This document shows, piece after piece, positions 15,001 to 18,000 of a DNA stretch of 25,073 bases; positions within the stretch are counted from its first letter, which is position 1; each line of letters starts with the position of its first letter. Made by a program: the position numbers. The DNA is from Granulicella sp. Its GTDB lineage: Bacteria; Acidobacteriota; Terriglobia; Terriglobales; Acidobacteriaceae. The stretch lies in contig DAHWNL010000041.1 of NCBI GenBank assembly GCA_027339965.1, positions 1 through 25,073 of the forward strand. The letters run 5' to 3'.

Positions 15001-18000
15001 CACTCCCACACGCGCACGGTAGCCTCCGGCGCAATCACGGTGACCCTCGCATGGGCTGACAGTAAGCTCTCGATCTTGGCCGCAGCCACCGCTCCAGCCC
15101 CCACTACCACACAGGGCCGCGCCGTCAGTTTCAGAAAGATTGGGAATAGGCTCATAGTTTCACCCTACATTCGCGGGCACTGGTCCGGGCGCGAGATCCC
15201 GCTTCACCGCTTCGACTTCTGCCCCGGCCAGCAGCGCCCGCAACTCTTCATCAGTCTTGCGGCGAAAGAAAGCGCGCAGGTTCTCGTCCTCCTGGCGTTG
15301 ACTCAGATACCCTCGCAACAGCCGCTCAATGGCCTCAGGACAGTCCTGGGCGGCGGCGCGAAAGCCGATCTGTCGCGCAATGCCCGCATACTCCCCCACC
15401 GCCCCGCCGACACAGAAATAAAACGCATCGACCATCTGTCCATCCTGCTTCAACTTCTTTCCTTCCAGCCCGATATCGGCCAGCCAACTTTGCCCGCAAC
15501 TATTGGTGCAGCCCGTGACATGCAGTCGAATCTGCTGGTCGAACTCCGGCAGCCGCTCTTCCAGCTCCCCCACCAGCCACTGGTTGAATCGTTTGGTCTC
15601 AGCGATCGCCAGCTTGCAAAATTCGGTTCCCGTGCAGGCGACTGCTCCGCGATAGAAGACTGTGGGCTGCACCTCCAGACCAAGCGCCGCAATCTTGCCG
15701 ACAACCTCCGCGGTCCTGGCCCTGGCAAGATTCACCAGGACGATGTTCTGCCCAATGGTGGCGCGCAGGGATCCATCCCCATAAGCCTCGCTCAGGGCGG
15801 CCAGGCCATGGAGCTGCGCTGGGTTCAATCGCCCATTCAGTACCGTCACGCCGATGGAGTTCAGCCCCGGCTGCCGTTGCGGAACCACACCCACATGATC
15901 GCGGTAAATGTCCTGGGCGACGGCTCCCTCGGGGCAGGGTTCGAAACGGAAGCCGATCTTCTCTTCGATAGCCTCCAGCATCTGCTCGGACGTCCAGCCA
16001 TGCTTCAGGAAAAGGTACTTCAACCGCGCATGGGTGCGGCTCTGGCGCAGCACCTCTTGCTCGCGAAAGATCTCGCAGATGGCCCGCACAACCGCCAAAG
16101 CCTTTTCCTGTGGCACGAATGCGTTCAGGCGCACAGCCAGGTGCGGCTCAGTCGAGAGCCCTCCACCCACGCGCACACTGTATCCCACCTCTTCCTTGCC
16201 GTCCTTGACACGACTCAGGCCTGTCAAAGCTACATCGTTGATCTCTGGAAAGCTGCACCAGATTGGGCACCCCGTCACGCTGATCTTGAACTTGCGGGGC
16301 AGATTGTGAAACTCCCGATTGCCGGACAACATCCGCGATACCGCCAGGGCCAACGGCGAGGCATCCAGGAGTTCGTGCCGGTCCAGCCCTGCCAGCGGGC
16401 ATCCGGTCACGTTGCGGACGACATCGCCACAGGCACCCTTGGGGCTCAATCCGACGGTGCTGAGCGCATCCACCACCTCCGGCAGGGCTTGGATCGTCAG
16501 CCAGTGGAGCTGGATGTTCTGCCGCGTGGTGATATCCGCAACTCCGCGAGCATATCGCTGCGTGATGTCAGCGATGGCGTGCAGTTGCCGGGCGGTGAGC
16601 AGTCCATTCGGCAGGCCGATCCGCATCATGAAGTACTCCGTGGCCTTGCCTTGTCCGCCCGATCCTCCGGTCACTCCGGCGCCGTCGCCCTGGGTGTAGA
16701 TTCCCCACCCCTTGAAGTAGAACTCGGCCCACTCCGGCAGCACGCTCTCACGGCCCTCGCGAGCGAACCGGCGCACCTCGTCCCAGGCCTCCCAGGGATT
16801 CTTCTCCAGCTTTAGCCGCTCGGACCGCTGCGCCTTTGTCTCCTTGACCAACGCGTCTCCTGCGCCAGGCTTCACTGTCTCGCTCAATGTCCTCTCCAAT
16901 CTCGTTCCATCGTCCCAGCCGCACAAATCCGTTGCTGAAAAAACGAATGCCCACGATCAGCTTCGTGGGCACTTGAGGTAACTGGGGAATTTCTATCTGA
17001 TGCAGCAATCAACCGCAGGCAGTATCCCAGACCCCAAGGTCAGGACACAGACAACAAGCCGGGATGTGCGTCAGGCTCATGAACGTAGTCTATCGAGAAT
17101 CTCAGTTGATAGCAACTTTCTCCCACCAAAAAAGCACAACTAAACTCCTATCTGTGACTCTGCCTCCTTGGCCGCCTCGTAGATCTGTTCGAAGCTTTCG
17201 ATGGCATACAACACCGGCTGCATCCGGGCGACGTCCACCTTCGTATCCATCACCTCCGCCAGCCGAAACTCTCTTATCTCCAGTCCTGCCGCTCGTTCGA
17301 CAACATGCGTGCACTCGCCATGCGAGGAGATCAATCCACTGCCGTAGACCTTGATCCTTCCTTCCTCATGAATCACCCCGAACTCCACCGTGAACCAGAA
17401 CAGCCTTCCCATTCGTTCGAGAGCCTGGGCGCTGTTCAAGCCGGCGCACACCCGGCCATACTCCTGTAGAAAATCGGCAAAAACAGGATGCGCATGCATC
17501 GGCACATGCCCAAACACATCATGGAAGATATCCGGCTCCGGGGTGTACTCCATGGAGTCGCGGCTGCGAATCCAGGTCGTGGTCGGGAAACGGCGGGCCG
17601 CCAGCATCTCAAAAAACGCATTCGAAGGCAGAAACCCGCTTACCGGCGTCGAGTTCCAGCCCGTCCGGGGCTCCAGCCGCGCGCTGACCTTGGCTAGATC
17701 CGGCAGTTGGTCCACCTGCAACCCGATCTGATCAAAGCCTTCCAGGTAGGTTCTTGATGCATACTCGTAGAGCTGGGGCAAACGGCGCGTCACCAGTTCA
17801 CTCCAGATGGCATGCTGCTCCGGCGTGTAGGCCGCCCAAACCTGCTCGATCAGATAAGGCTGCGCGGCTACCAACTCCATTGCGGTCGCCCGGCCGCGGT
17901 CTCTCCCGGTCTTCGCGGAACCCGCCATGGATGCAGCCATTGATTCCTCCCGCCAAGATCCTTCCGCGCTTCGCCTGTCATCGCCTGGCGCCCTAGGAGG

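Follow-up and report, generated by a model that had tools for sequence, protein, structure and literature searches.

The window analysed here is a stretch of 25,073 nucleotides from Granulicella sp. (GCA_027339965.1, contig DAHWNL010000041.1, positions 1-25,073 of the forward strand). On its minus strand, a ferredoxin-type reductase gene is preceded by a promoter-like motif, a short open reading frame (ORF) with clustered Cys codons and a hairpin followed by a T-run (Table 1), all of which had been reported in the initial annotation and were found again in the same places. The siroheme synthesis genes (13699..15155, minus) lie directly downstream of this SirA-type reductase, which is the only NIR_SIR-family gene in the genome; two genes of the PAPS-reductase family are also present. 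The best solved relative of the reductase is NirA of M. tuberculosis (1zj8, E 4.7e-84), named a sulfite reductase in the title of a paper, and a Pseudomonas homologue is given as a nitrite reductase in the cited account (PMC8092218). By analogy with the latter, nitrite is a conceivable substrate.

Table 1. Features of the reductase locus and its leader, in window positions
Feature	Position	Strand	Details
-35-like hexamer TTGCTA	17110..17115	minus	direct sequence reading
-10-like hexamer TAGACT	17087..17092	minus	6 nt before ATG; direct sequence reading
Leader ORF	17009..17080	minus	MSLTHIPACCLCPDLGVWDTACG; 23 codons + TGA; ATG at 17080, stop TGA 17011-17009
Cys9-Cys10 codons TGTTGT	17051..17056	minus	TGTTGT in 59/59 model matches
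Cys12 codon TGT	17045..17047	minus	doubles as first bases of hairpin H1
Hairpin H1 ('1:2' element)	17023..17047	minus	UGUCC-U-GACC / UUGG / GGUC-UG-GGAUA; -10.0 kcal/mol
Helix H2, 5' strand	17025..17038	minus	loop + 3' arm of H1, excludes H1; pairs with 16988-16972
Small hairpin B	17001..17017	minus	leader stop codon in loop; -7.0 kcal/mol; in minimum-energy folds
Helix H2, 3' strand	16972..16988	minus	UUCCCCAGUUACCUCAAG; directly 5' of terminator, 2 nt shared with terminator stem
Terminator stem-loop	16946..16973	minus	AGUGCCCACGA / AGCUGA / UCGUGGGCAUU; 11 pairs, 6 G-C, loop 6, -18.3 kcal/mol
Run of six T	16938..16943	minus	after terminator, CG between
Ribosome-binding site and ferredoxin-type sulfite/nitrite reductase	15160..16897	minus	GGAGAGG 16897-16891, start TTG 16887; Pfam NIR_SIR, NIR_SIR_ferr
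CysG N-terminal-type dehydrogenase/chelatase	15155-14493	minus	Pfam NAD_binding_7, Sirohm_synth_M; NCBIfam cysG_Nterm
Uroporphyrinogen-III methyltransferase	14580-13699	minus	Pfam TP_methylase; NCBIfam cobA_cysG_Cterm

Comparative analyses were based on a covariance model over 101 genomes of the genus, which gave 59 matches, on 88 reductase loci of the genus in total (57 matched by the model and 31 further loci that it missed), and on 27 reductase loci of sister genera, with the reverse complement and 200 shuffles as controls. An alignment of 15 leaders served for consensus folding (RNAalifold). With regard to the sigma-70-like promoter proposed initially, the motif is present, with a spacer of 17 nt between the two hexamers, but only 8 of 12 consensus positions match and a promoter scanner called none at the locus, the -35-like TTGCTA falling below its threshold. 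The motif is credible because its position is conserved and not because of its score: a TTG precedes the -10-like hexamer by 16-18 nt in 54 of the 59 model matches and at 17 of the 27 sister-genus loci, the start codon follows TAnnnT by 5-8 nt in 58/59, and an equivalent promoter-to-start spacing is seen at 18/27 sister-genus loci. Only two of the 59 matches carry a ribosome-binding-site-like motif before the leader start. A start codon at promoter distance, combined with the lack of a ribosome-binding site, suggests a leaderless mRNA, with transcription probably starting at the ATG at 17080 or immediately beside it.

The leader ORF has Cys codons at positions 9, 10, 12 and 22. Its start codon occupies the same model position throughout (ATG 46, GTG 12, CTG 1), and its distance to the Cys-Cys pair is a multiple of three in 59/59 (24 nt in 52, 27 nt in five, 21 nt in two). 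The codon before the pair encodes Ala in 49/59, with all four synonymous codons in use. Comparative signs of coding are thus provided by the ATG/GTG alternation, the multiple-of-three spacing and the synonymous variation at the Ala and third-Cys codons. The Cys-Cys-x-Cys cluster, described initially as conserved, is retained in every one of the 14 full leaders retrieved by DNA search, but the covariance-model matches keep it in only 33/59 (third Cys TGT in 25, TGC in 8). The third Cys is missing in 25/59, and Cys-Cys itself is present in all. The C-terminal half of the peptide is not conserved: L028 is frameshifted there, and L043, L059, L060 and L063 stop early, after 15-16 codons. The leader is best described as a conserved short ORF, apparently translated, of which the Cys-Cys pair is the only invariant coding feature. 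The invariance of TGTTGT extends to synonymous sites, and TGT makes up only 24% of the Cys codons in long ORFs of this genome; the former was counted against a reading based on decoding, and could reflect an RNA-level constraint in place of a decoding constraint.

Both the stability of the terminator and its six T were confirmed. No other terminator-like site lies in 16600-17400 (the mean in shuffles of the region was 0.3), and a terminator, by predicted function, was found in the 59 model matches with its core CCCACGA/UCGUGGG almost invariant. The T-run had been placed 92 nt before the reductase start, which is true with respect to TTG 16851; it is only 50 nt from TTG 16887, the likelier start since relatives have ATG, GTG or TTG together with a GGAG-type ribosome-binding site at this position. 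Upstream of the terminator, the consensus fold of the 15 leaders recovers H1, in which 96% of cells are paired and one pair switches from A-U to G-C. It begins 0-1 nt into the last Cys codon in 50/59, and the innermost H1 stems are of 38 distinct kinds among the 59 leaders (mean -11.2 kcal/mol). The covariation score of H1 and terminator in the same alignment is weak, as it is reached by 58 of 500 shuffles.

Link of the leader to the reductase and to other sulfur genes

By DNA search, the gap upstream of the reductase matches in 15 of 100 other genomes of the genus, the same count as obtained initially. The covariance model finds matches in 57 of the 101 genus genomes, and 57 of its 59 matches stand directly before the reductase ortholog; the two extra copies precede sugar-metabolism-type genes, not sulfur genes. 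At L009 and L013-L015 the leader remains with the reductase despite a different upstream gene. A conserved ORF had been claimed for 12 of 12 loci, and the wider set bears this out for the Cys-Cys pair, although the third Cys is often absent: a short ORF with adjacent Cys codons occurs at 85 of the 88 genus loci examined, including 28 of the 31 missed by the model, and at 22/27 sister-genus loci, compared to 2/27 when the reverse complement is read and an average of 2.6 (at most 7) for the 200 shuffles. A reductase paralog with 61% identity, found in two genomes, has such an ORF in 0/2 cases. At one genus locus (L148) the leader frame is broken and the terminator kept, and eight genus relatives have a Cys-Cys-Cys-stop leader and no detectable terminator. 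The leader peptides of the sister genera are Cys-rich but unrelated in sequence, and unrelated terminator stems occupy the same place before their reductases.

In the sister genera, poly-Cys leaders with a similar terminator also precede sulfate-binding-protein, YeiH-like and metY genes. Homologues of the sulfate-binding protein and YeiH were not found in the present genome with sister-genus protein queries (E 1e-20). The Met/Cys leader of metY, mentioned in the initial annotation, is indeed present (contig C25, about 27698-27552, minus strand); it carries a clear antiterminator duplex of -14.2 kcal/mol and a compensated stem variant, GGCUCAC/GUGAGCC. This leader was located via a protein search and not via a genome-wide pattern scan for promoters with Cys-Cys short ORFs, which returned the present locus and two others resembling chance. 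That the two leaders form a two-tier control by tRNA charging is speculation. The assertion that the element belongs to no Rfam family agrees with a search of 16500-17500 (E up to 10), where two chance-level matches of 13.7 bits (gathering 37.4) and 11.4 bits (gathering 49) were the only ones. A literature search found no paper assigning such a control element of sulfur assimilation in Acidobacteria; the initial claim that this is the first one goes beyond that result.

Proposed mechanism and alternative helices

Sequence comparison shows the ORF with its Cys-Cys pair, the spacing from the promoter motif, the pairings H1 and H2, the terminator and their association with the reductase gene. The element is likely to be a ribosome-mediated cysteine attenuator of the sulfite reductase-siroheme operon. 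In the mechanism that we infer, transcription would start at or next to the ATG and the 23-codon leader would be translated from a leaderless mRNA. With ample Cys-tRNA, the ribosome would reach the stop codon and leave, H1, whose 5' base is the last Cys codon, would close, and the terminator (16973-16946) with its six U would form, so that transcription would end 50 nt short of the reductase start. Under a shortage of Cys-tRNA, the ribosome would stall at codons 9-12 and occupy the 5' arm of H1, so that the freed loop and 3' arm of H1 could find a new partner downstream. The segment directly 5' of the terminator has the best support for this role (giving H2), the terminator 5' arm being a weaker candidate, and the outcome would be less termination. 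The response to cysteine is presumed throughout, and the re-pairing that would defeat the terminator is the most conjectural step. Of the cysteine attenuator on a leaderless mRNA as initially conceived, the ORF, the start spacing, the terminator and the reductase link thus stand, but not the proposed antiterminator.

H2 has an energy of -14.6 kcal/mol alone and of -21.0 kcal/mol with the enclosed hairpin in this copy. Measured from the first base of the last Cys codon, its 5' strand begins 8 nt further on here and 6-9 nt further on in most leaders. Leaders pair better with their own H2 3' strand than with foreign ones (-11.8 vs -8.9 kcal/mol, with 0 of 10000 permutations as good), a figure inflated by relatedness. 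Covariation in the 15-leader alignment is weak, three pairs changing on both sides and 42 of 500 shuffles reaching the score. H2 overlaps at least three nucleotides of the terminator stem in 40/59 leaders, and two in this copy, where a 9-bp upper terminator stem of -16.2 kcal/mol stays intact with H2 formed; in relatives with ...GGGCUUUUGUGUUUUU, the upper stem is still directly followed by the U-tract. H2 is therefore the best-supported alternative helix, but it only touches the terminator base.

A further reading, offered tentatively and itself doubtful, is that the switch has no classical antiterminator. A ribosome stalled at the last Cys codon would abut H2, the other strand of which runs straight into the terminator 5' arm, and would in this way be docked at the terminator base, where it might block completion of the stem base beside the U-run, either sterically or by taking the lowest pairs. 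The two-codon leaderless sensor would then be one arm of a family-wide set of cysteine leaders in Acidobacteria, acting on the reductase, the sulfate-binding protein, the YeiH-like transporter and metY.

Alternatively, with the same sensor, the antiterminator may be formed by the 3' arm of H1 (UCUGGGAUACU, 17031-17021) and the terminator 5' arm (16973-16963), the stalled ribosome masking the first half of H2. In the present copy this helix can be drawn with ten canonical pairs and two bulges, 89% of cells are paired in the 15-leader alignment as compared to 24-49% with slid partners, and both the sister genera and the metY leader of this genome use a strand that mimics the terminator 3' arm. 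Nascent-RNA folds were run with ribosome masks at five positions. The masking test reported initially was reproduced with a mask reaching 21 nt past the second Cys codon (to nucleotide 48), which left the terminator 5' arm paired with a probability of 0.75-0.81 in five close relatives, but of 0.27 in this copy under this most favourable mask, and the pairing is not above chance. In the relatives it appears only if the ribosome front extends 15 nt beyond the first base of the A-site codon, the last Cys codon, which is at the far end of what is plausible. An antiterminator on this arm, as first claimed, is also weak energetically: it reaches -7.0 to -8.1 kcal/mol here (-7.0 for the helix drawn above), far less than H2 or the terminator, and does not exceed shuffled sequence. 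In a duplex test of limited power (the metY positive control gave p = 0.08, and p <= 0.05 was obtained in only 1/12 sister-genus leaders), the best free-leader duplex with the arm was -8.1 kcal/mol in this copy against a shuffled mean of -8.9 (p = 0.60), the family-wide means were -9.05 against -9.37 for shuffles, and p <= 0.05 was found in 2/59. Compared to random genomic 24-mers there is a modest shift (-8.7 vs -6.5 kcal/mol; own copy p = 0.27). As the terminator arm is invariant, covariation cannot be counted in this pairing, which we consider improbable. A strong H2 does not significantly offset weak arm pairing across leaders (Spearman -0.20, p = 0.12), and 13/59 leaders are weak in both.

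Two other pairings were dropped. A pairing by eye of UGCCUGCGG (codons 21-23) with the terminator 3' arm was rejected for lack of conservation in relatives. The Cys codons (UUGU) could also extend H2 outwards by pairing with ACGA of the terminator arm, as is seen when naked RNA of one clade is folded; this pairing would have the wrong regulatory sign, leaders whose arm has ACGC still keep TGTTGT, and it was set aside.

Readings without a cysteine-responsive terminator

The near-invariance of the terminator core among the 59 leaders, though the reductase protein drops to about 70% identity, may also be expected if a trans-acting factor, an RNA-binding protein or a small molecule, recognises the CCCACGA/UCGUGGG stem and the ORF is incidental or secondary. 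The occurrence of a similar stem before other sulfur-related genes in sister genera fits this idea. However, conservation of the Cys-Cys codons, the frame and the start codon does not depend on that of the stem, the reductase leaders of sister genera differ in the terminator stem yet retain their Cys-rich ORFs, the metY leader of this genome has its compensated stem variant, and the stem matches no Rfam family. Recognition by such a factor is accordingly rated very unlikely.

Even less credence is given to a purely translational output, in which the stalled ribosome would free the reductase ribosome-binding site and leave transcription unaffected. The experimentally studied Cys leaderless short ORF acts in this manner according to the cited account (10.1101/834739), and the eight genus relatives with a Cys-Cys-Cys-stop leader and no detectable terminator speak for it; in this copy, however, a strong hairpin and six U intervene between the leader and the ribosome-binding site, and an unsystematic look revealed no conserved pairing with GGAGAGG.

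Least probable of all is a functional Cys-rich micropeptide, metal- or redox-active and co-transcribed with the reductase, the terminator acting as a fixed partial stop: Cys-Cys-x-Cys-Pro and the fourth Cys do resemble small metal-binding motifs, and the ORF length is conserved (21-24 codons in 51/59), but conservation of the peptide is limited to Ala-Cys-Cys, the third Cys being dispensed with in many leaders, the tail varies freely and the Cys-rich peptides of sister genera are unrelated.

Significance and relation to known attenuators

The Acidobacteria are abundant soil bacteria whose gene regulation is little known. The cysteine attenuator favoured here would provide sulfur assimilation with a concrete control point independent of any regulator protein, one that is present at nearly all genus loci and most family loci examined. 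The genus holds two designs, with and without a terminator, and in its major clades the alternative helix only touches the terminator base; it may thus offer a natural series for studying how much overlap an antiterminator needs. The switch is probably of a known type, here in a group without prior description of it.

In the classical attenuators of Proteobacteria (trp, his, leu, thr and pheA), a short ORF with tandem codons of the pathway amino acid is combined with a hairpin overlapping the regulatory codons, with alternative pairings and with an intrinsic terminator ahead of the first biosynthetic gene. The tandem-codon ORF, the codon-overlapping hairpin, the alternative pairings and the intrinsic terminator are all present in the leader described here. 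Unlike in the classical cases, it is cysteine that would be sensed, the start codon lies at promoter distance and lacks a ribosome-binding site, and a clear 2:3 antiterminator covering most of the terminator 5' arm was not found.

Cysteine-related leaders have been described in other groups. The uORFC-8-2 motif upstream of cysS in Rhodobacterales is a predicted ribosome-mediated attenuator (Brewer et al. 2021, PMC8632094) and similarly places two tandem Cys codons within a stem, with a terminator stem and U-run downstream. It differs in that its target is a cysteinyl-tRNA synthetase, that it is alphaproteobacterial, that its Cys codons, at 14-15, are mostly UGC, and that the cited account does not describe it as leaderless. 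In Actinobacteria, too, Cys-codon leader peptides have been reported before cys operons (Seliverstov et al. 2005, PMC1262725); that study found no terminator hairpins and suggested Rho dependence, whereas the present leader is followed by a strong intrinsic terminator.

The closest known systems appear to be the polycysteine leaderless short-ORF attenuators of mycobacteria, Ms5788A and others (Canestrari et al. 2020, 10.1101/834739). The resemblance noted is one of design, a relation in sequence being neither sought nor seen. They belong to a different phylum, and the present leader has only 2-3 clustered Cys codons. In the studied mycobacterial case, as reported there, control is translational, a sequestered ribosome-binding site being freed, and no terminator is described, whereas here an intrinsic terminator intervenes. 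Other points correspond to the cited description: an unannotated short ORF with at least two consecutive Cys codons stands before an operon of cysteine or sulfur metabolism, the ORF, which in mycobacteria starts at the 5' end of the mRNA, would do so here too, as suggested by the spacing from the -10-like hexamer, and a ribosome stalled at Cys codons is the proposed sensor. The element would thus extend cysteine-sensing leaderless short ORFs, experimentally shown only in mycobacteria, to a second phylum and couple them to an intrinsic terminator.

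Leader ORF, terminator and reductase gene

The sulfite/nitrite reductase gene is preceded by a promoter motif, a Cys-codon ORF and a hairpin with a T-run, all on the minus strand as described in the initial annotation, and the presence of a leader ORF and a terminator before this gene is a real and robust observation. The terminator has a folding energy of -18.3 kcal/mol and is the sole terminator-like site in 16600-17400 (mean of 0.3 in shuffled sequences). The promoter motif agrees with the consensus at 8 of 12 positions; a promoter scanner called no promoter at this motif, and an Rfam scan of the leader region found no family. 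The phenylalanine hydroxylase gene adjoins the leader upstream in most, not all, close relatives.

Features of the leader locus and neighbouring genes
Feature	Position	Strand	Remarks
-35-like hexamer TTGCTA	17115-17110	-	read from sequence; 17-nt spacer to -10-like hexamer
-10-like hexamer TAGACT	17092-17087	-	read from sequence; 6 nt upstream of ATG
Leader ORF MSLTHIPACCLCPDLGVWDTACG	17080-17009	-	read from sequence; ATG at 17080, stop at 17011-17009
Hairpin H1	17047-17023	-	-10.0 kcal/mol
Helix H2	17038-17025 with 16988-16972	-	H1 loop and 3' arm paired with segment abutting terminator 5' side
Terminator stem-loop	16973-16946	-	followed by CG, then six T at 16943-16938
Phenylalanine 4-monooxygenase gene (phenylalanine-hydroxylase-like)	17140-17940	-	upstream neighbour of leader; ends at 17140
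MFS transporter gene	18013-19338	-	neighbouring gene
LuxR-type response regulator gene	19575-20399	-	neighbouring gene
M61 glycyl aminopeptidase gene with PDZ domain	11579-13543	+	neighbouring gene

The gene downstream of the terminator encodes NIR_SIR and NIR_SIR_ferr domains and is followed by siroheme-synthesis genes. Judged from sequence, TTG 16887 is a likelier start than TTG 16851; it is preceded by GGAGAGG, and exactly aligned ATG, GTG or TTG codons occupy its position in relatives. With the start placed there, the T-run ends 50 nt before the gene, and not 92 nt as previously measured to TTG 16851. The nearest NCBIfam entry is ‘NirA family’ (score under the curated cut-offs) and the closest solved structure is NirA of M. 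tuberculosis (1zj8, E 4.7e-84), with plant nitrite reductases behind it at about 1e-66. The M. tuberculosis enzyme is reportedly termed a sulfite reductase in the title of one paper. The reductase is the sole NIR_SIR gene in this 98.9%-complete genome, which also carries two PAPS-reductase-family genes. Nitrite may still be a substrate, as a Pseudomonas homologue is a nitrite reductase (PMC8092218). Two other genomes (L151, G042:C8; L152, G018:C58) hold a further paralog of the reductase, with 61% identity across its N-terminal half and neither Cys leader nor terminator upstream (0/2 genomes); it may be the nitrite-specific enzyme there.

Conservation in the genus and the family

The reported matches of the gap DNA in 15 of 100 other Granulicella genomes were reproduced, the reductase ortholog adjoining in every case. 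A covariance model built from 15 leaders finds matches in 57 of 101 genus genomes (34 of the 53 of high quality), and 57 of the 59 matches lie directly upstream of the reductase, itself detected in 93 of 101 genomes. Among 31 further reductase loci missed by the model, 28 carry, at the equivalent place, an ORF no longer than 45 codons in which Cys codons are adjacent, two have leaders with separated Cys codons only and one has a broken leader frame, giving adjacent-Cys ORFs at 85 of 88 genus reductase loci. At the broken locus (L148, genome G098) the frame reads GTG CGA ATA TGA and TGTTGT is kept but out of frame, while promoter and terminator remain; the attenuator may be decaying here or have been re-wired. 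The other two of the 59 model matches are second copies of leader and terminator (MSFLPTALCCLRLG...) in two genomes (L045, G006:C41; L046, G097:C1), about 140 nt upstream of genes for a xylose-isomerase-like TIM-barrel protein and a Gfo/Idh/MocA oxidoreductase, neither obviously sulfur-related.

The 59 model matches show signs that the ORF is translated, and from a leaderless mRNA. Start codon and Cys-Cys lie a multiple of three apart in all of them (24 nt in 52, 27 nt in five, 21 nt in two), the start codon being ATG in 46, GTG in 12 and CTG in one. TAnnnT stands 5-8 nt upstream of the start in 58 leaders and TTG 16-18 nt upstream of TAnnnT in 54; a ribosome-binding-site-like motif precedes the start in only two. 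An Ala codon, in all four synonymous forms, precedes Cys-Cys in 49, and the third Cys of Cys-Cys-x-Cys is present in 33 (TGT 25, TGC 8). The remainder of the peptide is variable; one leader (L028) is frameshifted and four end after 15-16 codons. The Cys pair is TGTTGT in 59 of 59, TGT making up 24% of Cys codons in the long ORFs of this genome, and this invariance may reflect either a constraint at the RNA level or a selective advantage of slow decoding.

For sister genera the 28 best-scoring reductase matches were taken, protein score being the sole criterion; 27 loci were usable and the remaining one lacked upstream DNA (the tally counts the unpublished genome G125, from which no sequence was taken). 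A short Cys-Cys ORF lies within 400 nt upstream of the reductase at 22 of the 27, compared with 2 of 27 in the reverse complement and a mean of 2.6 (maximum 7) in 200 shuffles, and the promoter spacing of the leader is found again at 18. Since leader peptides and terminator stems are unrelated from genus to genus, it is the arrangement that is conserved and not the sequence.

RNA structures of the leader

In 50 of the 59 leaders the last Cys codon is where hairpin H1 begins; H1 is part of the consensus fold and has 38 distinct innermost stems across the 59. Helix H2, which excludes H1, has an energy of -14.6 kcal/mol alone and -21.0 including a small enclosed hairpin. Pairing is stronger between a leader and its own H2 partner (-11.8 kcal/mol) than when the partner is taken from another leader (-8.9 kcal/mol; equalled in 0 of 10000 permutations, a figure inflated by relatedness). 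The strength of H2 differs by clade, being high in the major ones and low in others, and covariation counts in the 15-leader alignment are modest for every helix. Counted from the first base of the last Cys codon, the 5' strand of H2 begins after 6-9 nt in most leaders and after 8 nt here, roughly where the hold of a stalled ribosome on the mRNA ends. H2 is the best-supported of the predicted structures for the stalled state, but its overlap with the terminator stem is only 2 nt here; in 40 of 59 leaders it is 3 nt or more. In this copy H2 spares a 9-bp upper terminator stem (-16.2 kcal/mol), and loss of the lowest pairs would shift the base of the stem 2 to 4 nt away from the six-U run; some relatives still have a U-tract immediately after the upper stem.

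The initial annotation had instead proposed that a stalled ribosome leaves upstream RNA to pair with the terminator's 5' arm. The masking result itself was reproduced, the arm being paired at a probability of 0.75-0.81 in five close relatives and 0.27 in this copy, and ten base pairs with two bulges can be drawn between UCUGGGAUACU and AGUGCCCACGA. This pairing is weak here (-7.0 to -8.1 kcal/mol), depends on a mask that runs 15 nt beyond the start of the A-site codon, and is no better than in shuffled leaders (p = 0.60 for this copy; family means -9.05 versus -9.37 kcal/mol; p <= 0.05 in 2 of 59). Against random genomic 24-mers the shift is modest (-8.7 versus -6.5 kcal/mol; p <= 0.05 in 5 of 59; p = 0.27 for this copy). 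The test is a weak one, giving p = 0.08 for the metY positive control of the same genome despite a -14.2 kcal/mol duplex and passing 1 of 12 sister-genus leaders, and a classical antiterminator is therefore unproven rather than refuted.

Related leaders and known systems

The Met/Cys leader noted earlier before metY (O-acetylhomoserine sulfhydrylase) is indeed present, with Cys-Cys plus Met, elsewhere in the genome (MVFCCTNVARMHVDMSMCRRSWVRAGTV; contig C25, about 27698-27552, minus strand). It is followed by a terminator (GGCUCACGA...GGUGAGCC and six U), whose 5' arm forms the duplex of the positive control with a clear antiterminator strand, CUCGUGGGUGCGUG. Sister genera carry poly-Cys leaders (e.g. 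MAFNLISTRCMCTCCCCACRSPRGHGDGM) with a terminator (GGCCCACGA...UCGUGGGCC) similar to the one described here, before genes for a sulfate-binding protein, a YeiH-like membrane protein/transporter, a porin-like protein and MetY (L077, L080, L087, L079, L081, L083); in several the leader includes CGUGGGC, which repeats the 3' arm of the terminator. A Thr-rich leader with terminator before a sister-genus aspartokinase gene (L082, MTTTTSTGTGTSMCFWRKGK) is likely a threonine attenuator.

A second design precedes the reductase at eight loci within Granulicella (L130, L131, L136, L140, L141, L143, L144, L147), namely a GTG-start ORF of 14-20 codons ending in Cys-Cys-Cys and an immediate stop (UGUUGUUGUUGA or UGUUGUUGCUGA); a terminator hairpin pattern search at these eight loci found none. 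These leaders resemble the mycobacterial C-terminal polycysteine type, and by this likeness their control may be translational.

Ribosome-mediated leader attenuation is a textbook mechanism class, and we consider it probable, with some room for doubt, that the Granulicella leader is a cysteine-sensing attenuator of this kind on a probably leaderless mRNA. A literature search, supplements excluded, found no description of this element. Neither the specific antiterminator of the initial annotation nor the claims of primacy made for the element are supported. Leaderless polycysteine sORFs of mycobacteria were shown by Canestrari et al. (10.1101/834739) to be cysteine-responsive, working via release of a ribosome-binding site. 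Cys leaders without terminators have been predicted in Actinobacteria by Seliverstov et al. (PMC1262725), and a tandem-Cys uORF with a terminator at cysS of Rhodobacterales by Brewer et al. (PMC8632094). Attenuators in Acidobacteria are, according to Naville and Gautheret (PMC2965389), nearly all unannotated.
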